From the IMG/VR virus record IMGVR_UViG_3300031992_000041, positions 1 to 64,000 of that record: DNA of 64,000 nt; one strand, given 5' to 3'. How positions within the stretch are numbered: the stretch's first letter is position 1; every line of letters starts with the position of its first letter. Below the pieces are notes generated by a model. That model did no database searches. It was given only the letters and a program-made list of their open reading frames with translations, and was not told where the DNA came from. The translations under genes and the position numbers were made by a program. This document shows, piece by piece, positions 33,845 through 58,031 of the stretch. The DNA is from a virus (Duplodnaviria; Heunggongvirae; Uroviricota; Caudoviricetes).

Positions 33845-34060
33845 TCAAAGTCCTCCGTATTCTTCGCCCACTTCCATATAACTGACAAGTTCGCGGAGTT
33901 CGTTTATCGTCTCGTCGAAGACCTTGGAGTCGCGGTGCTCCCGCAACTCCGAGGCCTGCATGAACTCCATGAGTTCCTGAAAGTCGGCCTTCGTGCCCGT
34001 GATCTTCAGCGTCGCCGTGTACTCCTTTCGCGGCGGGTGCGTCTCAAAGTCCGTCTTCAT
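33845..34060 (-). CDS. hypothetical protein (start at MKTDFETH)
   Basis: ATG (rc) at 34058-34060 preceded by AAAACAAGTAAC. Confidence 0.4.
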   Translation of the reverse strand: MKTDFETHPPRKEYTATLKITGTKADFQELMEFMQASELREHRDSKVFDETINELRELVSYMEVGEEYGGL

Positions 34061-34070
34061 GTTACTTGTT

Positions 34071-34571
34071 TTAATCCTCGTCGTCAAAATATCCGTACTC
34101 TAATTCCTTGATGGCGGCAATCATCTGCTCACGGATGTCCTCTCCGGTCAGTCCATCATTGTCACGCTCGAACCACAGGATGGCATCGTCAAGACTGGTC
34201 TCGTTGCAGTACTCCCAGTCATTCTCGCTGTAGCGTTCGATGAACTCCTCCTTGTCCATGTCCTTGAAGTGGCGGTACATGGTGCAGATGTCACAGCCGC
34301 AGGCTTCTGCGCTTTCGGAGCAGATGTTGTAGATGCTGGCAACCTCCTTCGTCTGGTACTTGATCCAGTGCGTCGTGTTGTTGTCGGCTTCCTCCGTCTC
34401 ATGCACCGTGCCGTCAGGCATCACCTCCATCCACTGATGTGTAGTGCCGCCATGTGAGCGCACCACCATATCATCCAGTTTGTCATCGTCCATGCTTTCA
34501 ACAAACGCTATTGCTTTGTGTCGCAGCGAATCGTTCTTAGTCATGTTTGTTTTCTTCAGTGTCTTGTTCAT
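34071..34571 (-). CDS. hypothetical acidic protein (166 aa)
   Basis: ORF track. Confidence 0.5.
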   Translation of the reverse strand: MNKTLKKTNMTKNDSLRHKAIAFVESMDDDKLDDMVVRSHGGTTHQWMEVMPDGTVHETEEADNNTTHWIKYQTKEVASIYNICSESAEACGCDICTMYRHFKDMDKEEFIERYSENDWEYCNETSLDDAILWFERDNDGLTGEDIREQMIAAIKELEYGYFDDED

Positions 34572-34610
34572 AACGATTTTGTTTTAATTGTTATTGTCTT
34601 GTCTCTACTA

Positions 34611-35342
34611 TTATCTGGTTTGACATTCTTCCCACTTCTCCACGCTGTAGCCCTCGTCGGTCTTCACGCCGAGGAAGGTGAAGGAGTAGCCGTGCGACTC
34701 AGGATCAGCCCACGACTCCAGCATCGCTATGTTTCCGCGATGGGTGAAAGTATCGTTCTTGATGTCCTTTACCGCCTTGTCGTAGGCATCCATGCCGCTG
34801 TCGGCAATCACGTTGCCTGAAAAAGTCATATCTGTGCGGTAGTCGTTGCCGTGGTTATTGAACACCGACAAGCGGAGGTCCAGTTCCACATGATACCAGC
34901 CGCGCTTCTGCTCGTAGAGTTCTGCCAGGCGGCGCTGCTTGGCGGCTTCCGCCTGGCGCATGCGCTCCTGCTTGTTGCGCTCACGTATCTCGTTGTAGAT
35001 ACGCTCGTGCTCTTCAAGAGTGTCTGCCAGTGCAAGGTAGAATGTGATGTCCCAGCAGCCGCAGCCCGTGGTGCGCATCGTCTCGCAGGTACGGACCGCC
35101 CCGCTTGGATAGCTGCCAAGCCCGTCACGGAACAGCGTGCGGATCTTTTGCTCCGTCGTGGCGTTCACTTTGATGTGGAACCATTCAGGATCAGCCGCCA
35201 GAGAGTCCGGCTTTCCATAGGTATTCCAGGAGTTAATCACTGCAATAGCCTCGTCAGCCGTGTGTGCTATTGCCTTGTAGGGTACATACGTGTTCCCGTT
35301 GCTGGCGCGTCCGCCGTAAGTAATACAAAATACGTTTGCCAT
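34611..35342 (-). CDS. hypothetical protein (243 aa)
   Basis: ORF track. Confidence 0.5.
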   Translation of the reverse strand: MANVFCITYGGRASNGNTYVPYKAIAHTADEAIAVINSWNTYGKPDSLAADPEWFHIKVNATTEQKIRTLFRDGLGSYPSGAVRTCETMRTTGCGCWDITFYLALADTLEEHERIYNEIRERNKQERMRQAEAAKQRRLAELYEQKRGWYHVELDLRLSVFNNHGNDYRTDMTFSGNVIADSGMDAYDKAVKDIKNDTFTHRGNIAMLESWADPESHGYSFTFLGVKTDEGYSVEKWEECQTR

Positions 35343-35388
35343 AATGCTTAACTGTTTAACCGATCAGTCCGGGGTCTTAAATAATGTT

Positions 35389-35595
35389 CTAAAGTTTCTT
35401 GTAATCCAGGTTATAATCCCTGCAAAATTTACGCCATGAACTATCGCTCATAGTCAGCCACCCATACACTTCGTCATCGCCTTTATCCGACCACCATGTG
35501 GTACGCGGATGGCAGTCAAGCCAGAAACGAATGTAGTGATTAAACAGACTGCCTTTTGTTTCAAGGCATACCATTTTCTGATTCTTGATTTTCAT
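35389..35595 (-). CDS. hypothetical protein (start at MKIKNQ)
   Basis: own leftward promoter TATCTTTG (rc of 35621-35628) about 25 nt upstream of this ATG. Confidence 0.4.
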   Translation of the reverse strand: MKIKNQKMVCLETKGSLFNHYIRFWLDCHPRTTWWSDKGDDEVYGWLTMSDSSWRKFCRDYNLDYKKL

Positions 35596-35600
35596 ACTCG

Positions 35601-35630
35601 TTGCAACTTTCGCCTGCAAAGATACGAATA
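35601..35630 (-). promoter_or_regulatory. leftward promoter with operator-like inverted repeat TTGCAACTTT…CAAAGATACGAA
   Basis: same motif family as at 32893 and 60528. Confidence 0.45.
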
Positions 35631-35727
35631 AGTGAGCGAAATACCAAATTTATTTGAGTATTTCCGCGCTCGGCTTGCCGCTTGCTACCGAAGGGACGCA
35701 AGAACGTGAGTATCTTTGAAATATTTT

Positions 35728-35765
35728 CCAATTCTTGCAAGAATTGGCAAGAATTAGCAAGAATT
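35728..35765. repeat. 20-bp perfect palindrome CCAATTCTTGCAAGAATTGG overlapping 3 tandem copies of nGCAAGAATT
   Basis: directly read; abuts the stop of the small lipoprotein ORF. Confidence 0.6.
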
Positions 35766-36073: not shown

Positions 36074-36394
36074 TCATAGCTTCTCGCATAGTTTGTTCAT
36101 CTTAGTCCAGAGGTTATGCAGGTCGTTCCAAAACTCGGGCACCTGCGTCTGTTCTCCGTGCCGGTTATACTCTTTGAGCATAGCGTCACGCAATTCATGG
36201 ACAGCGGCGAAGTATTCATGCCGCAATTCCTTCCAAGTCATCTTACTGGGTTCCTCAATAGTGTAATCCGTGGAAACACTGTCTGCTTCAAGAGATTCCG
36301 TAGCGAACGCTACGTTTCCGTGCTCGAGTTCGTGTTCGGCGCCTTGTATAAGCGTTGATTCAGGTACGATAAACGTCAATGTTACTTTCTTCAT
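36074..36394 (-). CDS. hypothetical protein (106 aa)
   Basis: ORF track; AAACAAGTAACGACTATG context. Confidence 0.5.
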   Translation of the reverse strand: MKKVTLTFIVPESTLIQGAEHELEHGNVAFATESLEADSVSTDYTIEEPSKMTWKELRHEYFAAVHELRDAMLKEYNRHGEQTQVPEFWNDLHNLWTKMNKLCEKL

Positions 36395-36399
36395 AGTCG

Positions 36400-36636
36400 T
36401 TACTTGTTTATGTTTCCTTTTTGTTTGAACTTGCCATACTCCCAGAGTTCTATCACCCCGTATGTCAGTTTGGGGAATTCATGGAACATCATGGTGAGAT
36501 AGTTTTTGTATTGCTTTCGTTCGTCCTTACTGAAATTTACTCCAGTAAGATTGTTGAAGATGATAGCGCAGGAAGGATTGTCCTCTCCAGGTGCCGTCAT
36601 TATCACTTGTCCGTTCTGTTTGATTTGCTGTGCCAT
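36400..36636 (-). CDS. hypothetical protein (78 aa)
   Basis: ORF track. Confidence 0.45.
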   Translation of the reverse strand: MAQQIKQNGQVIMTAPGEDNPSCAIIFNNLTGVNFSKDERKQYKNYLTMMFHEFPKLTYGVIELWEYGKFKQKGNINK

Positions 36637-36972: not shown

Positions 36973-37167
36973 TTAATGATTACCTTCCACTTCTATGACC
37001 TCATGAGCCATGCCGATGAACGTCAGCCAGTCGCTTGCACGCTTCGCTTCTGCCTCGTCCATCTTCAGGCAGTACACGATGTCGTCGATAAATCTCGTAG
37101 GTCGGAGCCTGTACAGGTACTCCGTGCAGTTCTTCCTGGTGTTCCAGATCTTGATTGTCTTTGCCAT
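36973..37167 (-). CDS. hypothetical protein (64 aa)
   Basis: ORF track; CTAAAACAAGTAACGACTATGG context. Confidence 0.45.
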   Translation of the reverse strand: MAKTIKIWNTRKNCTEYLYRLRPTRFIDDIVYCLKMDEAEAKRASDWLTFIGMAHEVIEVEGNH

Positions 37168-37186
37168 AGTCGTTACTTGTTTTAGT

Positions 37187-37453
37187 TCATGCCCCTAAGT
37201 CGTCGAAATAATCCGTCCAGCGGTCTCTGCACCACGGATGGCTCTCCGGGAAGTACGGCCAGGCATGCCATTGCATACGCTGGTTGTCTGTGATGAAGCC
37301 GCAGTTGTACTTAGCGCCTGGATATGGCGAATCCTGCTCGCTTCTATACACTCTGCCTTTGGTGTAGGCTTCTTCAGACTTACCGCCTACACCTTTCCGG
37401 TTGACGGTCTTCTTGCACAGATACCTGTGTCCTTTGATGATTCTTGGTTCCAT
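37187..37453 (-). CDS. hypothetical protein (88 aa)
   Basis: ORF track; same start context. Confidence 0.45.
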   Translation of the reverse strand: MEPRIIKGHRYLCKKTVNRKGVGGKSEEAYTKGRVYRSEQDSPYPGAKYNCGFITDNQRMQWHAWPYFPESHPWCRDRWTDYFDDLGA

Positions 37454-37621
37454 AGTCGTTACTTGTTTTAGTTTATGCCACTCTCTTGTATCTCTCCCGT
37501 GAATAGTACGGCGTGTGCCAGTTCGTGCGCCACACCGCCTTGCGCTTGCCGGGCGGCACGATGGCCTTGCTCAGCACGTCTAACAGTTCCCGCATCTCAT
37601 TGTCCATAACTGTGATGTTTT

Positions 37622-37865: not shown

Positions 37866-38456
37866 TTAATTCGTAGTCTTCTTCCATTCGCAATACACAT
37901 ACTGCATGAGTCGCTCGGCCCACTTACTGTCGAGTTCCCTGTAGAACTTCATCCATGCTCCCATCGTGTCGTCGTGGCAGACATCGCATAGGTGAGAGAA
38001 CTTCGAGCAAAAGTGCTGGTAGAGATAGTGCTGCTTCGAGCCCACCATCCAGAGTATCACCTCTTCGTAGGGCGGGTGGTTGTAGCAGAAGCCTGCCCAG
38101 CGGTCCATCATAGCCGTGAGTTGCTTCACGTCCGGCTTATCCTCCTGCTTCCGCTCGATGTCCTTGGCGAACTGGTCGAGGGTGTAGATGCCATCGACGG
38201 TGTGGCCGTGGTCGAAGAAGGCGTGGAACACTCCTGCATTGAACATGAACTCGTACTTACGGATGGCCTTGCTGCCGTCCATGGCGATCACGTCGATGGG
38301 GAACAGCCCGCCGCCCTTGTCTATCAGCACTTCGGGATAGTCCTCGTGCCAGAACTGCTCCAGTGCATCCCAAACTTCGGGTGCCTCGTCATACTGGAAG
38401 ATGAATACCTCGCCGTCAACCACGGCCTTCAGAATGTAATTCGCTGTTGTTGTCAT
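37866..38456 (-). CDS. hypothetical protein (196 aa)
   Basis: ORF track. Confidence 0.5.
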   Translation of the reverse strand: MTTTANYILKAVVDGEVFIFQYDEAPEVWDALEQFWHEDYPEVLIDKGGGLFPIDVIAMDGSKAIRKYEFMFNAGVFHAFFDHGHTVDGIYTLDQFAKDIERKQEDKPDVKQLTAMMDRWAGFCYNHPPYEEVILWMVGSKQHYLYQHFCSKFSHLCDVCHDDTMGAWMKFYRELDSKWAERLMQYVYCEWKKTTN

Positions 38457-38550
38457 AGTCGTAAAGTTTAAATTCGATTTGTTTTGTTTATGACTCCCGA
38501 TTTCGTAGGATTCTCACGAAAAGTGGGGTGTAAATGTGATTTTTTCTCGT

Positions 38551-38898
38551 TTACGCCACCTCTGCCACATACACCGGCAGGCCGGAGGCGGTCATAATTG
38601 TGCGCCAGCGGCGGTTGAGTATATCTATCTTCATCCGCAGTGTGCGGTAGGTGGTCTTGATTTCTGTGCGCTTCAGCAGTTTGTTCTTCACTCGCTGGCG
38701 CACTTCCACCATGACCGAACTGATGCCGTCCGTATCGGCGCCCTTGATGCCGTACCAGTAGCGTGGCAGTTTCCCGAAGGCACCATGCATGCGGTCATGC
38801 TCCACCAGTGTCTTCACCTCCTTCAGTATGCGCTCGCCGTCGGCGGGTGTCTCGTCAGCAAAGCCGATGTTTACTTTCCATTTCTTTTCCTGTGCCAT
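38551..38898 (-). CDS. hypothetical protein (115 aa)
   Basis: ORF track. Confidence 0.5.
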   Translation of the reverse strand: MAQEKKWKVNIGFADETPADGERILKEVKTLVEHDRMHGAFGKLPRYWYGIKGADTDGISSVMVEVRQRVKNKLLKRTEIKTTYRTLRMKIDILNRRWRTIMTASGLPVYVAEVA

Positions 38899-38911
38899 AG
38901 TCGTATTCGGT

Positions 38912-39670
38912 TTAGTGTTTTTTGTTTCTCTCGATTTCTCGCTGCTCTGCCTTGTTAGCCCATCGGCACAGTGGAATGTCGTTCCTGCCCGTTGCCTCCT
39001 TAATCAGTCCAATACCAAGGCGCATATTATAGTGTTCCTCCACAAAGTCCGTGAGTGGCTTGCGGTCACGGTAGCAGCCGGTGCCTATGTCGTTCAGGTC
39101 GGTGCGACGGTTGGGGATAGCCAGACGGCCTGCCACACCTCTCAGCACGTCCCACTTGCACTTGTAGAGGTTCTTGCGCTTTGTGGTGGCCATCGCAACA
39201 AGTGCGTCCGTCACGTCGGTGTTGGAGTAGGTGTCCCAGTAGAGCTGCCGCTCGTCCTCTTCCGACGTGGTGACGATCACGTCGCCGTAGTTGTCAGTCC
39301 AGCGGTACTTGCACGATTGCATACCACGGAACGCGGCTTCCAGTGCCTCGATGTCTTCCGGCTTCACCTCGCCGCTGATATCCTGCGGATGACAATACAG
39401 ATACTGCGACCCTTTCGTCAGCTCAGGACATTCGCCTGGTCCGTAACTCTCCTTGCGGAGCACCCAGCCTCTTGCCAATAGCAGCTGCACCACCTCGTTG
39501 TCGAATGCGGCCACAGCCTTTTCTTCTGCCTCTCGTGCCTCCTGGCTATAATCGTTCAGTGCCACGACGTAATCGCGGATGTCAATGCGGAAGTAGACGT
39601 CAGCCAATACCTCACGTCCGAATCCCTCATAATGCTTAACCTGTGGTCTCATGTCGATTGTTGTAATCAT
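38912..39670 (-). CDS. hypothetical protein (252 aa)
   Basis: ORF track. Confidence 0.5.
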   Translation of the reverse strand: MITTIDMRPQVKHYEGFGREVLADVYFRIDIRDYVVALNDYSQEAREAEEKAVAAFDNEVVQLLLARGWVLRKESYGPGECPELTKGSQYLYCHPQDISGEVKPEDIEALEAAFRGMQSCKYRWTDNYGDVIVTTSEEDERQLYWDTYSNTDVTDALVAMATTKRKNLYKCKWDVLRGVAGRLAIPNRRTDLNDIGTGCYRDRKPLTDFVEEHYNMRLGIGLIKEATGRNDIPLCRWANKAEQREIERNKKH

Positions 39671-39684
39671 AGTCGTATATGTTT

Positions 39685-39981
39685 TTAATGTTTCAAAATA
39701 AATCTTCTACAGTCAATTGCCGTGTCTCTCCACGAGCTAACCTTTGTGGGTTTCGGTCTTTCTGAATGATACCATGCCACAAGGTGATGTCTCGCATAGT
39801 TGGCGTGACCTGTATCATACCCGTCGTGAATGGCATTGTCTATCATCGTGAGCATGTAGCCGTTGGGGTTCGGTAGCCTCCAGTTTCCCCACGACTTTGC
39901 ATTGATTTTCTCGTCGATGGTCAGGTCTTTATAGAACTCAGACCACGGACCGATCACTAATGGTTTTGCATACTTTGCCAT
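39685..39981 (-). CDS. hypothetical protein (start at MAKYAKPL)
   Basis: ATG (rc) 39979-39981 preceded by CTAAAACGAATACGAACT. Confidence 0.45.
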   Translation of the reverse strand: MAKYAKPLVIGPWSEFYKDLTIDEKINAKSWGNWRLPNPNGYMLTMIDNAIHDGYDTGHANYARHHLVAWYHSERPKPTKVSSWRDTAIDCRRFILKH

Positions 39982-40003
39982 AGTTCGTATTCGTTTTAGT
40001 TTG

Positions 40004-40619: not shown

Positions 40620-40952
40620 TTACGCTGCTTCGTTGAGTGTCCACTCTTCGAGGTTCAGGTTCTCTTCAAGTGTGGGCGTTTGATTATTGTCGAAGAAATA
40701 GTCGAGCCAGCTTTCTATCTGTTTCTCGCGGGCTTCCTCCAGTTCTTTCTTTACCCACTTGCCAAAGCACTTACGCACATCCCACTCTGCAGGGTCGAAG
40801 TCGTTGCACTCATGGGTAATTCTGCGAAGTTCGCTACGCACAGTCTCGCTCAGTGCTTCGTCGTTGTTGAATACACCTATCAGTTCCATGCTGCCGGTGC
40901 TCATCCACTGGTCGCTCCTGTATAGCAGGAACACGCTGTCGTTCTCTTCCAT
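40620..40952 (-). CDS. hypothetical protein (110 aa)
   Basis: ORF track; TTAAAACGAATACGACTATGG context. Confidence 0.5.
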   Translation of the reverse strand: MEENDSVFLLYRSDQWMSTGSMELIGVFNNDEALSETVRSELRRITHECNDFDPAEWDVRKCFGKWVKKELEEAREKQIESWLDYFFDNNQTPTLEENLNLEEWTLNEAA

Positions 40953-41004
40953 AGTCGTATTCGTTTTAATTATTCGTGAAATTGGTAGTCGTTAAGGAAG
41001 GAAA

Positions 41005-46008: not shown

Positions 46009-46237
46009 TGTTGCTGCTCTGCATAATCACCAGCGGTGACATGCGTAACACCTTGGCCACCTTGGCGGCCATCTCCGGCGTGACGTTACGTCTGCCGTTA
46101 AGCACCTTGCAGAAGTTCATGGGATGCTCGCCGATCGCTTCAGCCAGTTCCGCGTAACTCAACCCCCTGTACTTCATCACGGCCTCTATCAGCCGCCCTG
46201 TCGTCAGCATCTCATTCCCACGTCTTACATTTGCCAT
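45986..46237 (-). CDS. XRE/HigA-like HTH protein
   Basis: GLSYAELAEAIGEHPMNFCKVLNGRRNVTPEMAAKVAKVL. Confidence 0.7.
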   Translation of the reverse strand: MANVRRGNEMLTTGRLIEAVMKYRGLSYAELAEAIGEHPMNFCKVLNGRRNVTPEMAAKVAKVLRMSPLVIMQSSNIEFCNKL

Positions 46238-46250
46238 AGTCGTAATCGCT

Positions 46251-46490
46251 TTACTCCGTTATCAATGTCAGTGTACTCTCCTCGCGCATGCTGCCGTACA
46301 GGTCGCCCTTCTGGTCGATGGGCTTAATCTGGTAGCGCACTTGGGTATTGTTCTCATACTGCGGGTAGGAAGGCTTCTTGTAGCCCGGCTCCTTCAACGT
46401 ATTGTCGATTTCAAAACCAACAATCTCACCCACCCTATCCATGTCGAAGACCACCTTGTCCCCGATGCTGTACTTTGTTTCAATCTTCAT
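46251..46490 (-). CDS. hypothetical protein (79 aa)
   Basis: ORF track. Confidence 0.45.
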   Translation of the reverse strand: MKIETKYSIGDKVVFDMDRVGEIVGFEIDNTLKEPGYKKPSYPQYENNTQVRYQIKPIDQKGDLYGSMREESTLTLITE

Positions 46491-46503
46491 AGTCGTAATT
46501 GTT

Positions 46504-47082
46504 TTAGTCCTTCAAAATTGCACTCTCTGTCAAATAGGCTGTGTAGAGTTTGTTGTCCCGCAGCAGATTTGTCGTGTAAATAATCTCAGCAGGCTCATCT
46601 GGCTCCTGTTCTGCAAGGATGCCGGAAATAACCGTTTCAACCTCATTACCGTCTGGGGATATCCATTTCACCTTGTCGCGTATCTTTCTCTCAGAATAGA
46701 AGAGGTTGCCCGGCTCTTTCATTCGGATATCATGCTCACCCTCCACCTTCTCCGCTATCTGTTCGATGAGATAGCCGAAGTCCGTGATGTCGAGCAGGTC
46801 GTCCTCCTCCGTCCAAGGGTCAGGGTCATCGTCCACAACGAAAGAGCCGTGATTTTCCGTCCCTGTAAAACAGAGGATGCCATCGTCGTTTATCCACACC
46901 TTATCCACGCACAGGTCACGTGGCTCATAGTCGCACTCCGGCGACACCACAATGCGGCACAGGCTGCCGCCCTCAATCGTCTTCTCCGGCAGCAGTTCGA
47001 GCGCCGCCTTCACCTCTGCCACAATCATCTTGTTCAGCGCATCATGTATTGCGCTGTAGTCATGTCTGATAAATTTTGCCAT
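46504..47082 (-). CDS. hypothetical protein (192 aa)
   Basis: ORF track. Confidence 0.5.
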   Translation of the reverse strand: MAKFIRHDYSAIHDALNKMIVAEVKAALELLPEKTIEGGSLCRIVVSPECDYEPRDLCVDKVWINDDGILCFTGTENHGSFVVDDDPDPWTEEDDLLDITDFGYLIEQIAEKVEGEHDIRMKEPGNLFYSERKIRDKVKWISPDGNEVETVISGILAEQEPDEPAEIIYTTNLLRDNKLYTAYLTESAILKD

Positions 47083-47095
47083 AGCCGTAATCGTT

Positions 47096-47287
47096 TTAGA
47101 TTTCGTTTGAATTATAATACTCCTCGTTGGTCAGGAGCCACACCTTCAGACCAACAATCTTACCACCCTTCTTCACGAGCCTGGTTCTTGTATACTTCAG
47201 TCCCGTCTCGTCCTTCTTCTGCTGCACAATAGCCTTGTCCTCGCCTTTGCGGCACTGTTCTTCATTGAATTGTCCTACGTAAAACAT
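47096..47287 (-). CDS. hypothetical protein (63 aa)
   Basis: ORF track. Confidence 0.4.
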   Translation of the reverse strand: MFYVGQFNEEQCRKGEDKAIVQQKKDETGLKYTRTRLVKKGGKIVGLKVWLLTNEEYYNSNEI

Positions 47288-48780: not shown

Positions 48781-49713
48781 TCACGCCGCCTGCTTCATCT
48801 GCGCCAGCAGCACGGCCCGCAGCCGCTCGGCCAGCGTCGGCTCGTGGTTAGCGGTGCATGGCTCTGGGTTCTTGACTCTCACCTCTTCCTTCTTCCCTGC
48901 CATCATCCACTTGGCCAGGTCGAAGCGGTCATAGTCCTTATCCTCAATCTTGCAGGTCATGTCGATATTGCCAAGCAGCGGCATCAGCAGCACCAGCGTC
49001 TCGTCGCCGGTGAACATCACCGCCCTGGTGCTCTCCACGAATCGCATACCCGTAGGCTGGAAGGCCATGACGTCGCGCAGCCTCTTGCAGTTGAACGAGG
49101 CGAACATCTTGTAGGGCATCCACCCCACCTCCACGTCGCGGCTCCACTCCTTGTCGGCGATGTCGTCGTAGTGGCTCAGCCGGATCGTCCTGCCGTCACG
49201 CTCGCCGTAGACACGCATCGGGCAGTTGACCGCCGACTTGTCGATTACAGCCTGCATATCCTTCAGCACGGCGTCCCACGCCTTGGCATCCACCGTAATC
49301 GGATAGCCTGATCTCCACGGCATCACGCTGCGCCATACCGGATAGCGTGCATCCAGTTTCATCTCGGCCGTCGCGCCCTGGCTGTCGGACACCCTCACGA
49401 ACTCGTCATAGGTGTCGCTGAGTATCTCCACCGTCACCACTCCTTTCATCTTCGTCACCTCGACGGGCATCATGTGGGCACCGTTCACCACAAACACGCC
49501 CTCGCCCATCTCGCAGCGGTAGTCCTGCAACTTATGCACCGCCAGGATGTGGCCGTCGGTGGCCATCATCAACCCCGAATCAGGCTCGATGGCCGGAAAC
49601 ATCCTAAACTGGCAGAGTCTGTCTTTCCTCTCCAGACACTTCCTCATGTTCTGCACCATCTTGTCGGCCACGAACGTCATTCGCGCCAACATCTTCAATT
49701 CATTCTTTGCCAT
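48781..49713 (-). CDS. hypothetical protein (start at MAKNELKML)
   Basis: ATG (rc) 49711-49713 preceded by CTAAAACATATACGACT. Confidence 0.5.
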   Translation of the reverse strand: MAKNELKMLARMTFVADKMVQNMRKCLERKDRLCQFRMFPAIEPDSGLMMATDGHILAVHKLQDYRCEMGEGVFVVNGAHMMPVEVTKMKGVVTVEILSDTYDEFVRVSDSQGATAEMKLDARYPVWRSVMPWRSGYPITVDAKAWDAVLKDMQAVIDKSAVNCPMRVYGERDGRTIRLSHYDDIADKEWSRDVEVGWMPYKMFASFNCKRLRDVMAFQPTGMRFVESTRAVMFTGDETLVLLMPLLGNIDMTCKIEDKDYDRFDLAKWMMAGKKEEVRVKNPEPCTANHEPTLAERLRAVLLAQMKQAA

Positions 49714-49726
49714 AGTCGTATATGTT

Positions 49727-49966
49727 TTAGGGTAAAATCTTTGCTTTCTTCGTATCATCCTCAGTAGCGAGGCGTATAGGGTCGGCGTCGTTGTGGACGG
49801 AAATCACCACGAGGTTGCCGAAGAGGTCATAGCACACGCGGCTCAGCGCATCACCGCCGAGCACGACTACCTTGCCGCGCTTGATGGCGCGGTCTATCTG
49901 CTTTCTTGTCATAAGCCAAAATATTTTATGTCCATCTGTTCTCCTCCAAAAGGACTGCCGCGTCAT
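49727..49966 (-). CDS. hypothetical small protein (79 aa; start at internal MTRQSFW)
   Basis: the start codon lies in the loop of a 13-bp hairpin; the upstream part of the track ORF looks intergenic and structured. Confidence 0.3.
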   Translation of the reverse strand: MTRQSFWRRTDGHKIFWLMTRKQIDRAIKRGKVVVLGGDALSRVCYDLFGNLVVISVHNDADPIRLATEDDTKKAKILP

Positions 49967-50094: not shown

Positions 50095-50403
50095 CTAACG
50101 TTCGTCCAACAATTCCTTTACCGTCTCGTTCTCCGCATCCTCGTCGCTCAGCACGGCAGCACCCAGCCATCCGTATGCATCGTCGATGCCCATGATATAC
50201 GCCTTGCGCTCTGCCTCCGTGTCGAACTCCCGCACCGTCAACTGGCCCTCGTCGTAGTGCTCACGTATGCCATCCACGCCGTCGGTCATATACGCCTTGG
50301 CGGCATACTCACCGAAGATGACAGTCACTCTGTGCTTCTTGCGAGTGGCGGGAAGATCCGGGTTCTTGTTGTCAATAGGTGCTGCAATCTTTTCCATAGT
50401 CAT
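50095..50403 (-). CDS. hypothetical protein (102 aa)
   Basis: ORF track. Confidence 0.45.
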   Translation of the reverse strand: MTMEKIAAPIDNKNPDLPATRKKHRVTVIFGEYAAKAYMTDGVDGIREHYDEGQLTVREFDTEAERKAYIMGIDDAYGWLGAAVLSDEDAENETVKELLDER

Positions 50404-50415
50404 TTCTCGTTTTAG

Positions 50416-50763
50416 TCAATATTCCCTCACCACTCTCCTTACCTCGCCATAGACAGCCTGCAGGCCGTCAAGCGAGAGAAACATGTCACTTCTTGGCGGC
50501 ACATACTCGTCGCTGCCCATGCTGACGATGTAGTATGGCGTACTTCCATCACGTCCGGCGTATGCGATGCGGTCGCATACCACCGTCTCGCTCGTTCCGT
50601 CCGGCTTCGTCTGAAACAGGATGAGCATCCGCTTGAACAGTACGTCCTGCCCAGGCTCCGCCCCTATCTGCTTCAGCAGACCAATAGTCTCTGTCACCAG
50701 CACCTCGCGGCAGTTCGCCACCGCCGCACTCACATTCTTTCCGATAGTTGTCTTAATCTTCAT
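50416..50763 (-). CDS. hypothetical protein (115 aa)
   Basis: ORF track. Confidence 0.5.
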   Translation of the reverse strand: MKIKTTIGKNVSAAVANCREVLVTETIGLLKQIGAEPGQDVLFKRMLILFQTKPDGTSETVVCDRIAYAGRDGSTPYYIVSMGSDEYVPPRSDMFLSLDGLQAVYGEVRRVVREY

Positions 50764-50775
50764 AGTCGTTTCGTT

Positions 50776-51420
50776 TTATGGATTACCCGTCTCTCTCAGA
50801 AATGCGTCTTTCTCGCTGTCCATCAGTCCGAAGTAGAACTCCGTCATCAGATTCACCTGATCCGTACCGTTCAGGTGTCCCCATAGTTGGCGTATCTGCG
50901 CCATCCTGTCCTGCCCCTGCTGCAACTTCTTCGGGTTCTTTACCCTTGCCAGCACATGAGCCAGGCACTCATAGATGCTACCCTGCACCTCGTGCTCGAA
51001 GTCACCATCGACATAGCAGTCAGGATTGTCCCCGTCCATGTCGGTGCTGCCCACCGACCAATAGCCCTCGCCGTCATAGTCCACCACGATGCGCTTGCCG
51101 AAGGGCTGCAGCGTCTCGTTGGCCTCGCGCAGTGTCTCGTCGAAGTCGTGCTCAGTCACTTCCAGCAGGGTCAGCTCCGTAATGTGTGCCGTCTCTGCCT
51201 CGTCACTGCTCTCATACTCCGCCACATAGCCATCCTGCGTCAGCTGTCCGTCCTTGTCCTTGCGGATGTTCAGCTCGAAGTAGCCCTCCGTGTCGGCATG
51301 GTGTTCGTCCTCCACGAAGATGAGTGCCGTCTCTTCGTCGGGATAGTTGCGGTCCAGTTCCGTCCGCATCCCCTCAACAATCTGTCCGTCGAATGACGTG
51401 AATTTGAATCTAATAATCAT
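50776..51420 (-). CDS. hypothetical acidic protein (214 aa)
   Basis: ORF track. Confidence 0.5.
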   Translation of the reverse strand: MIIRFKFTSFDGQIVEGMRTELDRNYPDEETALIFVEDEHHADTEGYFELNIRKDKDGQLTQDGYVAEYESSDEAETAHITELTLLEVTEHDFDETLREANETLQPFGKRIVVDYDGEGYWSVGSTDMDGDNPDCYVDGDFEHEVQGSIYECLAHVLARVKNPKKLQQGQDRMAQIRQLWGHLNGTDQVNLMTEFYFGLMDSEKDAFLRETGNP

Positions 51421-51841: not shown

Positions 51842-52639
51842 TTAGTCCACAATCCCGCCGCCGTAGAACTTGTCGAAGTCAGACTTCAATCCCTTAGCGG
51901 TCTTCTTCCATTCCTCATAGCTTGCCTTCGCCTTGTCGTTGACGATTTCCCATTCAGAAGCCATCTGGCGGCGATAGTTGCGGTAGCCTGTATAGTTGTC
52001 CGTATAGTCACGGAACACATCATCAAGGGTCCCGCCCTCAATCGTGGTGTAGTTGCCGTGCTGGTCTTTCACCACCAGGCGAATACCCTCGCTGCTTGCC
52101 GTGAATGTCGATTTGTTGCCCCACAACTCCGCGTTGATAGCGGCATGCAGAGAGTCGCACATCCGGTATATCAGTCCACCGTCAGTCAGAATAGGGAAGT
52201 CAACATACTTCAGTTCCATCTTCCGCTGGACGTGGTACTCATGGTTCCAATTCGGTGAGCACGCATTGGAGAATGATATAAGATACAGCTGCCTATCGTC
52301 TTTGCCGATAGAGATAGCGTAGAAGTACCGCCATTCCCATTCTCCGTCGTAGTGTCCTAAGTGGTTTATCGCTTCTTCAGTCAAGTCTTTCTGCTCAAAC
52401 TGGATGATAGTGTGATAATATTTACCGCATGTTCCGCAAGTACCCTCGCTTGGTCTGTGTCCGTTGTCGCTTGGGTAGTCAAACTTTCGGTCAGGACCAT
52501 AGACATCATTCACAATCCTCTCGAACATCGCCCTGCTTTCCTTGTCCTCCGAGCGCAGAAACGATAGCGCCGAGGTCATTCTGATCTTCTCGTCGTTTGC
52601 GAGATAGTTCAAATAAATCTTCGTTTTCTCCATTGTCAT
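51842..52639 (-). CDS. hypothetical protein (start at MTMEKTKIY)
   Basis: ATG (rc) 52637-52639; the upstream part of the track ORF overlaps the next gene. Confidence 0.5.
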   Translation of the reverse strand: MTMEKTKIYLNYLANDEKIRMTSALSFLRSEDKESRAMFERIVNDVYGPDRKFDYPSDNGHRPSEGTCGTCGKYYHTIIQFEQKDLTEEAINHLGHYDGEWEWRYFYAISIGKDDRQLYLISFSNACSPNWNHEYHVQRKMELKYVDFPILTDGGLIYRMCDSLHAAINAELWGNKSTFTASSEGIRLVVKDQHGNYTTIEGGTLDDVFRDYTDNYTGYRNYRRQMASEWEIVNDKAKASYEEWKKTAKGLKSDFDKFYGGGIVD

Positions 52640-52646
52640 TACTATT

Positions 52647-53489
52647 TTAGTCGTTGATGTCTCTTTGCAGGCAGAGCACGTCGCCCGTCCAGACTTGGAA
52701 CAGGGTGTGCATGGCTGCCAGGTCGGCAGGCTCGTAGCCGTCGGGGATGACGCCAAACACGTCGCAGCCCTCGCAGTCGCCGATATGCTCGGCGTTATAT
52801 ACCACCACCGAGCCGTCCTCGTTAAGCGCAAAGGCGATATGCGCCTCCTGCATCCTCTCATAGAGTGCCTGCATCTCTTTGGCCAGTGCCTCCTGTGCAG
52901 GGGTAAGCCGTATCAGCAGGTCGATGTCCTGCCGACTGCTTGTCTGCTCAAAGTAATAGTCGCGTCCGAGGAACGTTCCACTCTTTCCGGCGGAAAGGTT
53001 CTTCGTGAGCAGATAGAATCTGGCACCGCACGTCGCCCCCTTTTTCGAGGCGGCACTCATATAGTCGTCCAGTTCCTTGCCGAGACGCTCACGCAGGGCT
53101 GTGTCGATAAGGCTATACGCCCCGCCCTGGAGCATGTGGCTCCCAACCACGAGGATAGGAGTCACCGTTCCGTCGGCCGCCCGCTCCATCAGCGTCCGAG
53201 GCTCATACTTACGGCCGTAGATATACATAAACAGTCGCTCGAATATCTCCTGCTGCATATCTGGTGCAAGGTCGTCAAAGTCCTTCTCTTCTTTATAGCC
53301 ACTGTAGTCCATGCCCACGGCTATCTCGCCGCCGCACGGATCCTGATAGAGATATTCGGCCTTGGCACAGGAACCCCTACGCTCCATCCAAATATCACAC
53401 TCTCTCTTATTTCCATCACTGGTATCCATGAGGATAGCCGACAGCGAACGACGAATGTCGTCACGCTTCAATTCTTTTAATACTTCCAT
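52647..53489 (-). CDS. hypothetical protein (280 aa)
   Basis: ORF track. Confidence 0.5.
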   Translation of the reverse strand: MEVLKELKRDDIRRSLSAILMDTSDGNKRECDIWMERRGSCAKAEYLYQDPCGGEIAVGMDYSGYKEEKDFDDLAPDMQQEIFERLFMYIYGRKYEPRTLMERAADGTVTPILVVGSHMLQGGAYSLIDTALRERLGKELDDYMSAASKKGATCGARFYLLTKNLSAGKSGTFLGRDYYFEQTSSRQDIDLLIRLTPAQEALAKEMQALYERMQEAHIAFALNEDGSVVVYNAEHIGDCEGCDVFGVIPDGYEPADLAAMHTLFQVWTGDVLCLQRDIND

Positions 53490-55511: not shown

Positions 55512-55676
55512 AGTCTCTGAATTTTTATTGTTACGATTTTGTTCCGTTAATACTCACGCTGCCATAGCCAGCGTATCCTGCTCGTCCTCGTCGTACTCTA
55601 CGCCGAGCGAGTTCATAAAGCGCTCCATCTTGGCACGTTCTCTTCTGTCTAATCTTCTCATAGTCGTTTTGATAGT

Positions 55677-55964
55677 TTACGCTGCCATAGCCATCTGCAC
55701 GGGCAGGGCCATGTTCAGCAGTTGCACGTTCACTTCGGGTAGGAATGGCATATCGAGCCATACAACCGTATAGCCCCAGTCCTCGTCTATAGGCGAGAAC
55801 GTCCCGAAGAACGCCTCGCAAATCATTCTCACGTCGGCCATCACGGGCACGTTAGCCTTGTCGATAGCCAACTGGTCTTCGTCACTCCAGTCGCAGAACT
55901 TTGCACCGTGCGCAGTAGCACACTTCTGCATAGCCTCTTTCAGATTCTCCAAATTTGCTTTCAT
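55677..55964 (-). CDS. hypothetical protein (95 aa)
   Basis: ORF track; ends …AMAA. Confidence 0.45.
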   Translation of the reverse strand: MKANLENLKEAMQKCATAHGAKFCDWSDEDQLAIDKANVPVMADVRMICEAFFGTFSPIDEDWGYTVVWLDMPFLPEVNVQLLNMALPVQMAMAA

Positions 55965-55966
55965 AA

Positions 55967-56314
55967 TTATGCTGCCTTAGTGTTCATTCCAAAATCTTCT
56001 CTCTCGTCCCAGGGGATATAGAGCAGTTCGCTCTCGATGAGTGCGTCGATAGCCACACGGGCACACTTACAGGCCCACTCGTTGCGCGGATCGAAGCGAC
56101 CCTTGCGTTCACAGATAGCCAACTGCTTCAAATACTCGATACACAACTTGGCACGCTCCTGCACCAGATAGCGGTGGTCTTGCGCCATAGCCTGCGCCAC
56201 CTCTTTCGTGTGGCTCAGACCGCCGTTAATAAACCTGCTCTCCGTCTCCACGAACTCCACTTCTCGCTCGTAGAGTTTTGCCTTAATCTCATCATACATA
56301 GTCTTGCCCTCCAA
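55967..56314 (-). CDS. hypothetical protein (115 aa)
   Basis: ORF track. Confidence 0.45.
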   Translation of the reverse strand: MEGKTMYDEIKAKLYEREVEFVETESRFINGGLSHTKEVAQAMAQDHRYLVQERAKLCIEYLKQLAICERKGRFDPRNEWACKCARVAIDALIESELLYIPWDEREDFGMNTKAA

Positions 56315-56487
56315 TTTTTAGTTCGACATCATGCAGCCGATAGTCAATAAGGCTGCATCAACAATCCCCATAAACGTCAGCGCGGTAAGAGTCCGCACAA
56401 TAATGCGCTCGCCACGTGGCGTGTTCGCCCAGCGACGCGCTTGTGCCAGGCGATAGTAAACCTTCCGTTTCATAGCCGTATAGTCGT

Positions 56488-56766
56488 TTAATAGTGACGA
56501 ATACCCAATACCCGATGCCCAGTCAGGCGGTCGAGTCGCCTGCTGATTTCGATATAGAGAAACTCCACGCTCAGCGGAGCCACAAAGATGCACGGCAGAC
56601 CGATAGCCAGCCGTACCCATGTCGGTGTGCCGTCGGGGATAGCGTTTGCCAGCGTCGCTGCCGTCAGATACATAGCGTAGAACGTGATGGAAAAACCCGC
56701 TACCATCCACAAAAATCGCACCATCTTAATAGCAACCTTAGTTGCAATAGCCTTAATCTTCTTCAT
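56488..56766 (-). CDS. hypothetical membrane protein (93 aa; start at MKKIKAIA)
   Basis: ATG (rc) preceded by GGGAGGACAAGACT; two predicted TM helices. Confidence 0.4.
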   Translation of the reverse strand: MKKIKAIATKVAIKMVRFLWMVAGFSITFYAMYLTAATLANAIPDGTPTWVRLAIGLPCIFVAPLSVEFLYIEISRRLDRLTGHRVLGIRHY

Positions 56767-56783
56767 AGTCTTGTCCTCCCATA

Positions 56784-56981
56784 TTAGGCGCAAAACCCGT
56801 CGAAGGGGTTCATGTCGATGATAACGGCGTGCTCGCCATACTCCTCCGCCATGTCGGCGAAGGCACACTCCATAGCCTTTGCGTCGGCGGATGTCAGGTG
56901 CATACTTGCAGCCATAGTCGCTGCGATAGATACGATACGCGCACTCTTCTTGGCGGTGCTTACCATAGTCTTTGCTTTCAT
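56784..56981 (-). CDS. hypothetical protein (start at MKAKTM, or at MVSTAKK 15 nt downstream)
   Basis: ORF track with the start moved past the overlap; AGACTATGG context at the alternative start. Confidence 0.35.
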   Translation of the reverse strand: MKAKTMVSTAKKSARIVSIAATMAASMHLTSADAKAMECAFADMAEEYGEHAVIIDMNPFDGFCA

Positions 56982-57162
56982 AATTGTAATTTTTGAATTG
57001 TTGAACACTTGGTTTATTATAACACGTTAAACACATCATTCTCGGTCACACTCTCCACACGCACCTGCTGCCCGTGGTCTTGCATAGTCTGTGCAATAGA
57101 CTCGCACGTTATCCTCTCGCCAATAAACAGGGTGGCGATGCCCATCATAATCTTTGCCATAG

Positions 57163-57396
57163 TTATGCTGCTTTTTTAATACCTGTTTTATGCCTGATAG
57201 AGTCATACTTTGTCGGCTCGTCTGCCGTGAAGATCTGGCGCACGAACTCGCGCACCGTCAGCCCCTGAATCCACGCACCGCCCATGAGCAGCATAGCCAC
57301 TGCCACGGGCGCCTGCCACACGTTTACCACTGCACCGGTAGCCACTGCGAGCCCCAGCGCCATCAGGATAGCACCTGCAATTTGTTTATTCTTCAT
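57163..57396 (-). CDS. hypothetical membrane protein (77 aa)
   Basis: two TM helices; ends …KKAA. Confidence 0.5.
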   Translation of the reverse strand: MKNKQIAGAILMALGLAVATGAVVNVWQAPVAVAMLLMGGAWIQGLTVREFVRQIFTADEPTKYDSIRHKTGIKKAA

Positions 57397-57421
57397 AATT
57401 TCGTCCTCCGAATTTTAGGGG

Positions 57422-57607
57422 TTAGTCAAAATCAAAAACTGTCTCGATAAAGTCACGCAGCCGCTCGTCGTCCCACTTGCAGCCGAGGTCACGGGCAAAT
57501 CCGAACAGGATGTCCTTGACCTCAGGCTCGCTATAGGTGCGCTCGTCGCGCAGTTCATGCAACTTGGGGCGCAACTGCATAATGATACACTTTGCTTCTT
57601 CTGCCAT
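57422..57607 (-). CDS. hypothetical protein (start at MAEEAKCII)
   Basis: ORF track; start adjusted to the ATG after the AGGACTATGG context. Confidence 0.4.
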   Translation of the reverse strand: MAEEAKCIIMQLRPKLHELRDERTYSEPEVKDILFGFARDLGCKWDDERLRDFIETVFDFD

Positions 57608-57620
57608 AGTCCTGATGCCG

Positions 57621-58031
57621 TTAGTAAATTCTACTTTTGCATACACACGTCAGACGACTACCCTCAAAGCGTTTCACCACGATAGTCCTGCCGATGGTTC
57701 CGGCCTGCTCCCTCGATGCGCCATTCTTTGCTTTCTTGGGCTGCAACTGTCCTTTGCCCTCGTTGAACATACGGCTGCGGTTCTCCAACTGGGGCATAGT
57801 GTCCGCCATAGTCTCACGACGCACACGGCTGCGGTCGCTCTCCATAGACCGGCCAGATACACCCCGACGCTCCGCACGAATCCGTTCACGCTCACGATAC
57901 GCCATCAGGCGGTCGTGCTGCTTGCGCTTGGCGATTAGCCACTCACTGCGTTTGCTCATGCCAATCTGCTCTGAAATAGAGGGTGTGCCCCACTCCTCGG
58001 GCAGGACACACATCTGCGATAATGTAGCCAT
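57621..58031 (-). CDS. hypothetical Arg-rich protein (136 aa)
   Basis: ORF track; GCATACGACTATGG context. Confidence 0.5.
   Translation of the reverse strand: MATLSQMCVLPEEWGTPSISEQIGMSKRSEWLIAKRKQHDRLMAYRERERIRAERRGVSGRSMESDRSRVRRETMADTMPQLENRSRMFNEGKGQLQPKKAKNGASREQAGTIGRTIVVKRFEGSRLTCVCKSRIY

Follow-up and report, generated by a model that had tools for sequence, protein, structure and literature searches.

A two-part motif at gene starts in one module of a large phage, a candidate Shine-Dalgarno-independent translation initiation region

Introduction

Why would a phage place nearly the same text directly before the start codons of many different genes? The question is raised by a large phage from gut or rumen, of which we analysed a 64,000-nt window (IMG/VR record IMGVR_UViG_3300031992_000041, positions 1 to 64,000). 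At these starts the minus strand reads TAAAAC-n2-4-(T/A)ACGACT-ATG-R, with about 20 bases of shared text directly before the ATG of the gene. The initial annotation had offered three readings: a translation signal that works without Shine-Dalgarno pairing and would suit a Bacteroidota-type host, a phage promoter and an RNA processing site. Our analysis supports its interpretation in part. The phage most likely infects Bacteroidales, as judged from an ArdC-like protein whose best plasmid relatives are all Bacteroidales and from family contigs of 108-124 kb that fall in Bacteroidales, Bacteroidaceae and Alistipes genome bins. In this order, ribosomes reportedly initiate without Shine-Dalgarno pairing.

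Results

The motif marks gene starts of one module

The association of the motif with gene starts is confirmed. The core A[CA][GA][AG]CT-ATG or TACGAYT-ATG is present at 17 of the 46 curated starts between 34 and 58.8 kb, and variants with one mismatch or one insertion bring the count to about 22, so that the earlier figure of about 18 was fair; all six examples quoted with it lie where they had been placed, read on the minus strand. To the left of this module only 2 of 45 genes have the motif (p = 1.7e-4). The pattern TAAAAC-n3-4-TACGA matches exactly four times against 0.04 expected, and ACGACTATG with at most one mismatch matches 59 times against 12.5 +/- 3.4 expected, with 54 of the 59 on the minus strand. 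A position weight matrix derived from 15 instances gave 53 minus-strand and 2 plus-strand sites at scores of at least 10. Every site scoring at least 24 stands at the head of an ORF of 64 codons or more, and the ORFs begin precisely at the motif ATG (Table 1). As had been noted, the motif contains no GGAGG-type Shine-Dalgarno match.

Three points of the earlier account need correction. The motif is to be read on the minus strand. Two exact ACGACTATG copies, those at 44750 and 54004, fall within ORFs and do not start genes. The proposed sharing of a GACT-ATG core with the left-module GGAGGACTGA cassette mostly fails: in GGAGGACTGA-nn-ATG, GACT occupies roughly positions -10 to -7, and the letters after it are GA instead of ATG. 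What the two have in common is a general T at -1, found in 85% of 172 family starts, while GGAGGACAAGACT-ATG is an element shared within the right module.

Table 1. Motif instances and host-type promoter boxes in the window
Element	Position	Strand	Context	Gap to upstream stop (nt)	Score
AATCAAAGCATACGACT-ATG-G	58028..58048	-	opens 136-aa ORF 57621-58031; 5' half degenerate	48	30.6
TAAACTATCAAAACGACT-ATG-A	55658..55679	-	before 35-codon ORF, within 165-nt gap preceding gene 55511		18.9
TAAAATAGTAATGACA-ATG-G (variant)	52630..52649	-	opens 263-aa ORF; TAA is upstream stop	13	24.6
TAAAACGAAACGACT-ATG-A	50760..50778	-	opens 115-aa ORF 50416-50763; TAA is upstream stop	12	28.6
TAAAACGAGAAATGACT-ATG-G	50394..50414	-	opens 100-aa ORF	18	31.9
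TAAAACATATACGACT-ATG-G	49710..49729	-	opens 310-aa sliding-clamp-like gene; TAA is upstream stop	13	35.4
TAAAACGATTACGGCT-ATG-G	47079..47098	-	opens 192-aa ORF	13	33.3
TAAAACAATTACGACT-ATG-A	46487..46506	-	opens 79-aa ORF	13	33.4
TAAAGCGATTACGACT-ATG-G	46234..46253	-	opens 83-aa ORF	13	30.4
TAAAACGAATACGACT-ATG-G	40949..40968	-	opens 110-aa ORF; TAA is not upstream stop	52	33.5
TAAAACGAATACGAACT-ATG-G	39978..39998	-	opens 98-aa ORF; one-base insertion in 3' block		18.7
TAAAAACATATACGACT-ATG-A	39667..39687	-	opens 252-aa ORF	14	32.7
TAAACCGAATACGACT-ATG-G	38895..38914	-	opens 115-aa ORF	13	35.3
TAAACTTTACGACT-ATG-A	38453..38470	-	opens 196-aa ORF	94	29.6
TAAAACAAGTAACGACT-ATG-G	37450..37470	-	opens 88-aa ORF	19	35.7
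TAAAACAAGTAACGACT-ATG-G	37164..37184	-	opens 64-aa ORF	19	36.8
TAAACAAGTAACGACT-ATG-A	36391..36410	-	opens 106-aa ORF	5	34.9
TTAAAACAAGTAAC-ATG-A (truncated variant)	34057..34077	-	lacks GACT; left boundary in the initial annotation
-7 promoter box TATCTTTG	59239..59246	-	Bacteroidota-type; outside motif; ~490 nt upstream of first module gene (58754)
-7 promoter box TATCTTTG	35617..35624	-	strict; TTTG ~21 nt upstream; downstream end of box-free stretch

The motif outlasts its surroundings in relatives

Many starts in syntenic relatives, whose marker proteins are 81%, 58%, 56%, 52% and 44% identical, carry the motif, and the same text stands before genes whose proteins are merely 44-58% identical. 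In loci fetched by protein similarity rather than by motif, ATG comes directly after the two-part motif in 43 of its 44 distinct occurrences. The orthologous motif junction is conserved while the flanking sequence has diverged, and the junction of the sliding-clamp-like gene is kept in 10 relatives. Dense arrays also occur in other viral contigs of 50-145 kb that have family proteins in common (G+C 45-61%), one of which has the motif before seven consecutive genes. Across these genomes six consecutive positions hold 1.5-2 bits each; in more distant relatives the motif decays gradually (ACAACT, AAGACT, GAGACT). It is absent from Bacteroidota-like elements that share solely a DarB-like gene, and TACGACT is specific to the phage group.

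No paralogy was found among the 46 module proteins, most of which have no family match, and the motif-bearing genes are unrelated; even the identical 22-nt junctions at 37167 and 37453 precede two unrelated proteins. This lack of paralogy, the presence of the motif in syntenic relatives and the survival of the junction beyond its flanks suggest that conservation reflects selection rather than duplication. The module itself is strongly mosaic between relatives. In blastn comparisons 30 of 64 homology blocks start within -10..+30 nt of a gene start, against 7.5% by chance, and the motif at 46487..46506 with its 79-aa gene forms a single block, 93% identical, in common with one relative (L009).

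The start context follows Bacteroidia determinants in its 5' half

In Flavobacterium johnsoniae, initiation is promoted by an AUG start codon and by adenines at -3, -6, -12 and -13 (PMC6847099), and in a published initiation complex the purine at -3 stacks on 16S G693 (PMC13000457). The motif has adenines at -3, -6 and -12 to -15; in 52 core instances their frequency is 90% at -3, 100% at -6, 75% at -13 and 58% at -12. Mean folding energy in 40-nt windows is -0.9 kcal/mol at core starts versus -7.5 in 40-mers drawn at random from the module, and ATG is depleted at -20..-3 (31 occurrences versus 65.5 expected).

A Bacteroides plasmid served as control. Before its 50 annotated CDS, A stands at -13 in 68%, and a TAAAA-like run is a common feature around -16 to -11, while ACGACT is absent. 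By this control the TAAAA half is generic; the invariant 3' block (T/A)ACGACT lies outside host-generic rules and is kept throughout the phage group.

The motif also often overlaps the end of the preceding gene. Across 149 distinct instances the commonest distance from stop to ATG is 12-14 nt (41 of the 109 that have a nearby upstream stop), and TAAA at -16 is the actual upstream stop in 21 of 56 cases.

Host-type promoter boxes lie elsewhere

The consensus of the Bacteroidota-type -7 box is TANNTTTG / TAHHTTTG (PMC6847099). Strict TAnnTTTG boxes on the coding strand are intergenic at 62502, 60557, 59246, 35624 and 32918, and the stretch from the third to the fourth of these is free of them; they are elements separate from the motif. 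In seven relatives a conserved terminator-like hairpin and T-run lie 30-35 nt before the motif and the sliding-clamp-like gene, and since the module contains hairpin and T-run elements it may be more than one transcript.

Discussion

On balance we favour the view that the motif is a standardised intergenic junction that acts in RNA as a Shine-Dalgarno-independent translation initiation region. The TAAAAC block (adenines at about -15 to -12), with A at -6 and -3, would keep some 40 nt around the AUG single-stranded and provide adenines upstream, where Bacteroidia ribosomes prefer them. Contact with the anticodon loop of the initiator tRNA could be lengthened by U at -1 and a purine at +4, and AUG would be the sole start codon, with rival upstream AUGs depleted. 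Between closely spaced genes, TAA in the 5' block doubles as the upstream stop; a terminating ribosome would then come free 12-14 nt before the next AUG, and internal cistrons of long transcripts would be more readily translated by coupled re-initiation. The stop within the motif recalls termination-re-initiation coupling; unlike pure coupling, the motif keeps its TAA even with the upstream stop at a distance of 19-94 nt, and coupling therefore cannot be its sole role. The 3' block (T/A)ACGACT may be a phage-group-specific optimum or a recognition site.

The likeness to the 'Kozak-like' adenines of Bacteroidia start regions (Baez et al. 2019, PMC6847099; Arpin et al. 2026, PMC13000457) extends from the absence of a Shine-Dalgarno sequence, the adenine positions and the AUG to low RNA structure and AUG depletion near the start. 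It was this reading among those first proposed that gained most from the comparison, including the presence of the 5' half in the Bacteroides plasmid. The Bacteroidia context is, however, a weak statistical preference, whereas here a 7-nt block adjoining the AUG is almost invariant, with fixed C, G and T positions (T at -1 in 85%), and the signal is restricted to one module and one phage group.

Several observations count against the favoured reading. Canonical GGAGG at canonical spacing precedes 11 of 45 left-module starts in the same genome, which would be odd if the host ribosome ignores Shine-Dalgarno sequences. Six positions of 1.5-2 bits resemble a specific binding or pairing site more than a low-information context, and confinement to one module is not what a plain 'best start signal' would lead one to expect. 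Nor do we know of a role for C at -2, G at -4 or C at -5.

In a second reading, which we regard as unlikely, an RNA-binding protein of phage or host, or a small RNA, would bind (T/A)ACGACU-AUG as an operator in the mRNA start region and, as repressor or activator, switch a whole temporal gene class together. Such an operator would extend the initiation region rather than exclude it. T4 RegA is a repressor at translational operators of early mRNAs, and the parallel is a conserved unstructured start-codon sequence on many early genes that allows joint control. RegA sites differ from the present motif in being AU-rich and in showing more degeneracy. In favour of an operator are the high information content in fixed register with the AUG, the confinement to a module next to a regulatory region (17/46 versus 2/45 starts), the invariance across genomes of very different G+C, and the absence from both the plasmid control and the elements that have the DarB-like gene alone in common. 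Against it, no candidate RNA-binding regulator was identified among module proteins that mostly lack family matches; no complementary small RNA was seen, AGTCGT being rare on the coding strand (10 copies versus 46); and the gradual decay in distant relatives is more in keeping with a tunable context than with a lock-and-key site.

Alternatively, and in our judgement improbably, the motif might do little beyond permitting a start, serving as short homology for cassette swaps while gene conversion spreads one version. Identical junctions before unrelated genes, the strong mosaicism, blocks that begin at junctions and the L009 block, which comprises exactly the motif and one gene, are consistent with this. 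Yet cassette mosaic blocks end at gene borders regardless of the motif, some 20 nt offers little length for homologous recombination, and the position-specific adenines suit a translational role. Persistence at 45-61% G+C and around 50% protein identity would moreover call for purifying selection, not just conversion.

The motif is probably not a promoter, and we give very little credence to the idea that phage-specific machinery initiates at or next to the A of each ATG to make a leaderless or near-leaderless mRNA per gene. A compact motif of ~17 nt in fixed register with the ATG, before nearly all genes in some arrays, could be so read, and the hairpin and T-run before the sliding-clamp-like gene in seven relatives would fit. 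The T7 promoter TAATACGACTCACTATAG also contains AATACGACT, up to nine bases, at -16 to -8, in its polymerase-binding part. However, the motif lacks the melting and initiation part CACTATAG; T7 geometry would put the start 8 nt past GACT, within the coding sequence; and no T7-type polymerase was seen, the window proteins that were scanned including neither an RNA polymerase nor a sigma factor. The T7 likeness is most likely coincidence. The upstream half has the pattern read by Bacteroidia ribosomes, which would be purposeless outside the mRNA, and with TAA as the upstream stop and genes 12-14 nt apart without terminators, most copies of each cistron would be internal anyway. The motif has no TAHHTTTG box, such boxes being located elsewhere; the late TATG promoter of phiKZ starts transcription at its G (PMC4666361), which in this motif would cost the gene its start codon; and most transcripts of F. 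johnsoniae are reported to be leadered (PMC6847099).

Least credible of all is an endoribonuclease that cuts long early transcripts at or just before the AUGs, releasing translatable units or inactivating an mRNA class later in infection: a short, single-stranded, module-specific sequence repeated at cistron boundaries would suit it, and an RtcB RNA ligase gene (616-1842) places RNA cutting and repair within the phage's biology, but no nuclease candidate is linked with the motif, its sequence does not separate cleavage from ribosome binding, and a cleavage site does not predict the adenine match to translation determinants. T4 RegB cuts at GGAG to inactivate an mRNA class.

In the favoured reading of the motif as an initiation region, the uniformity of its 3' block is probably reinforced by recombination at junctions during gene-cassette exchange, which may help to hold it uniform since homology blocks between relatives begin there. 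T4-type phages carry mobile regulatory cassettes in which promoter-early stem-loops border small ORFs in hyperplastic regions. Unlike these, the motif has neither promoter nor stem-loop, is unstructured and adjoins the ATG; like them, it is a repeated text before many small, unrelated, fast-changing genes at which homology blocks begin.

A start-context motif concentrated in the right module

A conserved start context, TAAAAC-n3-4-TACGA, had been proposed for the right module (34-58.8 kb, 46 curated genes), and it proves to be real, with 4 exact matches against 0.04 expected. Allowing at most one mismatch, ACGACTATG has 59 matches (12.5 +/- 3.4 expected), 54 of which lie on the minus strand, the coding strand for nearly all genes from 600 to 58,750. 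A weight matrix made from 15 instances gives 53 minus-strand sites with a score of at least 10 versus 2 on the plus strand, and all sites scoring at least 24 coincide with the first ATG of an ORF that has 64 codons or more. The initial annotation placed the motif at gene starts, where it is indeed present; that picture is amended in that the strand is minus and two exact copies (44750 and 54004) fall within ORFs. The hexamer ACGACT has 46 coding-strand copies, 16 of them with ATG next. With the core motif defined as A[CA][GA][AG]CT or TACGAYT abutting the opening ATG, 17 of 46 curated starts in the right module carry it versus 2 of 45 in the left module (0.6-33 kb; Fisher p = 1.7e-4). The motif had also been described as free of a Shine-Dalgarno match, and 15 of the 17 core starts of the right module do lack GGAGG, GAGGA and AGGAG, as does the consensus TAAAAC-nnn-TACGACT. 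A canonical Shine-Dalgarno site, with at least 4-5 nt pairing to the 16S 3' end at 5-10 nt upstream, is absent from the motif.

Across 172 starts of the family (the window and its relatives on viral contigs), the favored nucleotides are T at -1 (85%), C at -2 (51%), A at -3 (72%), -6 (62%), -12 (51%), -13 (69%) and -14 (75%), and a purine at +4 (93%). In the core class (n=52), A reaches 90% at -3, 58% at -12 and 75% at -13, and 100% at -6, where A defines the class. The ACGACT block carries 1.5-2 bits at each position in these 52 instances, preceded by T at -7 and -8 (54% each) and by A at 58-81% across -15 to -12. At loci chosen without use of the motif, 43 of 44 distinct two-part motifs have ATG next. 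Among 149 distinct instances, the upstream stop most commonly lies 12-14 nt before the ATG (41 of 109), and 88 of those upstream stops are TAA. Of 56 TAAA at -16, 21 serve as a real upstream stop and 35 do not, which argues that the 5' block is an element of its own that often doubles as a stop codon.

Conservation within a group of large uncultured phages

Only 43 homologues of the clamp-like protein occur in a large protein collection. They are encoded on metagenomic and IMG/VR viral contigs of 50-133 kb with the same gene order as the window, and the element is thus part of a large uncultured phage. The motif text stands in front of many genes in relatives at marker-protein identities of 81%, 58%, 56%, 52% and 44%, with traces only at 32%. 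Upstream of the orthologous clamp-like gene in 10 relatives, positions -15 to -1 are nearly invariant while flanks and synonymous sites vary. A scan of IMG/VR with TAAAACNNNTACGACTATG returned 61 loci, the dense ones with 6 to 11 motif-bearing genes each; in one of them (L048) it stands at 7 consecutive genes within 3.5 kb. These dense loci have proteins in common with the family and a G+C content of 45% to 61%. As a negative control, the 'Bacteriophage sp.' records MT835707 and MT835677, which have only the DarB-like gene in common with the window, lack the motif.

Tandem gene duplication as the source of the repeats is ruled out by the absence of paralogy among the 46 module proteins. Since the motif is also kept in diverged relatives, it is selected in the phage group and does not stem from duplication. 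We conclude from these sequence comparisons that the junction between genes is real, strongly selected and phage-group-wide. The IMG/VR relatives came from an alignment-based scan; the module had no megablast match among 50,697 phage records, and single-protein IMG/VR scans with two window proteins and a look-up of one window-edge protein were also negative. Start calls are visibly wrong at at least three genes of relatives (L009 4159, L009 8449 and L014 2207), and with the motif, gene finders could correct such calls in these phages, which are abundant in gut and rumen. For the L009 4159 gene the called start is 33 nt too far downstream, and the ATG of the motif is in frame.

Indications of the host

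Five indirect lines point to a host in Bacteroidales. The Bacteroidota -7 promoter element, TANNTTTG or TAHHTTTG, ends about 5 nt before the transcript start (PMC6847099), and strict TAnnTTTG boxes occur on the coding strand only at 62502, 60557, 59246, 35624 and 32918, all intergenic and in the form TATCTTTG or TACCTTTG. Of the ArdC-like protein's 3,039 plasmid matches, the best 15 all come from Bacteroides, Phocaeicola or Parabacteroides. A reverse-transcriptase gene of the family is found on contigs of 108-124 kb in genome bins of Bacteroidales, Bacteroidaceae, Alistipes and Barnesiella, and on two of these binned contigs the motif precedes it. A further line is a weak HU-HIG domain match, and the start contexts of the window are similar to those in a Bacteroides plasmid. 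Among 185,579 reference genomes the marker protein has no relative and therefore gives no prophage or plasmid link; no CRISPR spacer or other direct link to a host was found.

A probable role in translation initiation

The best-supported role of the motif is Shine-Dalgarno-independent translation initiation in a probable Bacteroidales host, where initiation would often be coupled to termination of the upstream gene. In Bacteroidia, the choice of start codon without Shine-Dalgarno is only partly understood, and the known determinants are weak adenine preferences. Ribosomes of F. johnsoniae disregard the Shine-Dalgarno, A at -3, -6, -12 and -13 together with an AUG start increases translation, and AUG is scarce near starts (PMC6847099); in the initiation complex, a purine at -3 stacks on G693 (PMC13000457). 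The motif resembles such an initiation region. Its adenines occupy the same -3, -6, -12 and -13 positions. Its starts are almost without secondary structure, the mean minimum free energy (kcal/mol) over -25 to +15 being -0.9 at core starts, as compared with -1.9 at the remaining starts and -7.5 in random 40-mers drawn from the module. Finally, AUG is under-represented near starts of the family: the 172 starts have 31 ATG at -20 to -3 versus 65.5 expected from strand frequency, an approximately two-fold depletion, and 44 at -40 to -23, with a weaker depletion downstream of the start (52).

Among 50 annotated genes of the Bacteroides plasmid, TAAAA-like runs are common at about -16 to -11 (A 68% at -13), and the 5' half of the motif is thus host-generic. 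The same genes show no ACGACT, with A at 22% at -3 and T at 44% at -1, and the 3' half, with ACT abutting ATG, is thus specific to the phage group. A likeness of TTAAACGAAT to the leader of a high-expression Bacteroides vector (PMC10781749) was set aside because the distance to the ATG differs. The phage group places one rigid 20-nt solution before dozens of unrelated genes. The motif is thereby a natural test sequence for what Bacteroidia ribosomes, or a phage factor, read beside AUG, and could be put to use as a strong, portable start signal in engineered Bacteroides and Prevotella.

Host-type promoter boxes lie apart from the motif

The motif is probably not a promoter. The right module does contain at least two elements made of a hairpin and a T-run, so it probably comprises several transcription units, and 7 relatives have such an element, with compensatory changes in its stem, 30-35 nt upstream of the clamp-like gene's motif. 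However, the host-type boxes stand apart from the motif, with no strict box between 59246 and 35624, and the motif itself holds no TAHHTTTG or TANNTTTG box, as a leaderless promoter of host sigma-A would. The genes lie 12-14 nt apart without terminators, so that most copies of each cistron would be internal, and the window proteins scanned yielded neither a polymerase nor a sigma factor. A sigma-70 promoter scan gave 14 hits versus 12.3 in shuffles.

Phage-type promoters were considered and rejected. A T7-type promoter has a 23-bp consensus with binding at -17 to -5, initiation at -4 to +6 and a cognate polymerase gene; here AATACGACT alone matches, CACTATAG is absent, the geometry fails and the window proteins scanned include no polymerase family. 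The phiKZ late promoter TATG was discarded as an ATG-overlapping precedent, as its transcription starts at G (PMC4666361).

The element upstream of the clamp-like gene reads TCATAACTTGTAA ... TTGATTTTGARTGTTGA, then a G+C-rich hairpin of 12-14 bp, then the T-run, with conserved TTGATTTTGA-like text immediately 5' of the hairpin. This text could be a weak host-type promoter, and the whole looks like such a promoter with an attenuator, or like a short hairpin RNA. Read-through or attenuation at the hairpins of the module is possible.

Two features lie near the start of the module. A leader of about 490 nt (58760-59240, minus strand) separates the TATCTTTG box at 59246 from the first gene at 58754; it contains a T-arm-like GGTTCGATTCCGATGA at ~58,850, has no ARAGORN or Rfam match, and may be a structured non-coding RNA or tRNA-like element. 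A 145-bp unit is repeated in tandem about 2.5 times at 59451-59807, the copies being 91-96% identical, within a gene-poor region of ~2 kb between divergent regulatory genes and the module start; the repeats could be replication-origin iterons or regulator binding sites.

Sources of the uniformity

Generic context leaves the information content of the 3' block and the restriction to one module unaccounted for. Either a specific reader (a protein, a small RNA or a ribosomal site) or homogenization by recombination would underlie this uniformity. Of 64 homology blocks between relatives, 30 begin in the interval from -10 to +30 nt around a gene start, versus 7.5% by chance, and one block in L009, 93% identical, comprises exactly the motif and one 79-aa gene. 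Such block starts fit cassette exchange at junctions, although any gene-wise mosaic also ends its blocks at gene borders. The arrangement is akin to the promoter-early stem-loop cassettes of T4, in that a repeat borders small unrelated ORFs and homology breakpoints fall there, the motif and the gene border being inseparable as breakpoint; in contrast to the T4 cassette, which has a promoter and a stem-loop, the motif is unstructured and has no promoter box.

As to a ribosomal site, UUACGACU is the 3' end of universal primer 1492R (GGTTACCTTGTTACGACTT), and is hence complementary to 16S rRNA 1493-1500 (AGUCGUAA) in the decoding center. An 8-mer match to a 1.5-kb rRNA has a chance probability of ~2%, other RNAs being left out of this figure, and 16S 1493-1500 is paired in helix 44. 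We treat the complementarity as a lead only. If UUACGACU did pair with 16S, messenger and ribosome would touch in a way that is new, or the block would be where a phage factor docks.

Other start classes

Canonical Shine-Dalgarno sites mark another class of starts in this genome, examples being GGAGGACAAGACT-ATG (56766) and, in the left module, AAGGAGGACTGA-nn-ATG. Shine-Dalgarno-like signals occur at 11 of 45 left-module starts, which is unexpected if the host ribosome ignores Shine-Dalgarno. Many starts at 3,400-16,800 of the left module and in the relative L011 read the strong canonical AAGGAGGACTGA-n2-5-ATG, the TGA therein being the upstream stop; in an IMG/VR scan with this pattern, unrelated phages were among the matches listed. 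The presence of the motif and of strong Shine-Dalgarno classes in one genome raises the idea of class-specific translational control. A far-reaching version, which we regard as very improbable, holds that there are two translation codes for two states of the host ribosome, with UUACGACU possibly a pairing site: normal Bacteroidia ribosomes, which disregard Shine-Dalgarno, would use the TAAAAC-TACGACT-AUG junctions, and the strong AAGGAGG signals of the left module would come into use only once phage or infection has freed the anti-Shine-Dalgarno tail, for instance by loss of bS21.

At 12644, 5483 and in L011, the junction reads TTAAAAGGAATACGATT-ATG, a second type that is a local variant of the motif. 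A third class has GCAGCGTGA, GCAGCGTAA or GCAGCATAA as the end of the upstream gene, 2-5 nt ahead of the ATG, as in AGCAGCGTGAGGT-ATG, which suggests a family of small proteins that share their C-terminus, or a further coupling signal.

Features of the window and of its relatives (L numbers, loci on viral contigs)
Feature	Position	Remarks
Hairpin element upstream of clamp-like gene	~50,030-49,930 (minus); L008, L009, L013, L014, L017, L018, L019	conserved, non-coding
Sliding-clamp-like protein (distant)	48781-49713	right module
DarB-like methylase/helicase	41005-45963	right module; 1,652 aa
ArdC-like protein	53517-54572	right module
DnaJ plus LPD29 protein		right module
Two DNA methylases, RtcB, YopX-domain proteins, SPFH protein, repressor-like HTH protein		left part of window
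Reverse transcriptase and ~360-aa protein	L006 4222-5838; L009 4159-5805; L013 5197-6804	
Third junction class	upstream of 57160, 55964, 55661, 55511; L006 413, L008 3033, L009 760, L013 924	

Gene content

The right module also encodes many small proteins without family match. The window contains no structural genes, no tRNA (ARAGORN) and no Rfam families. In L006, L009, L013, L024, L083 and L084, a reverse transcriptase of 535-548 aa is followed by a conserved protein of ~360 aa; the pair belongs to the same anti-defence module of the relatives, has the motif in front and is absent from the window. An island at 22,300-26,300 has a G+C content of 34-40% in a genome of 54%, holds about seven ORFs without family match, the largest of 402 aa, and is probably a recent insertion from a source of lower G+C. 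Right after a TATCTTTG box, a small gene (60171-60521, minus strand) encodes a product that weakly matches the RNA polymerase alpha C-terminal domain (E = 6e-4, short of the Pfam cut-off); L009 and L010 show a similarly faint match, and the product could be a transcription modulator.
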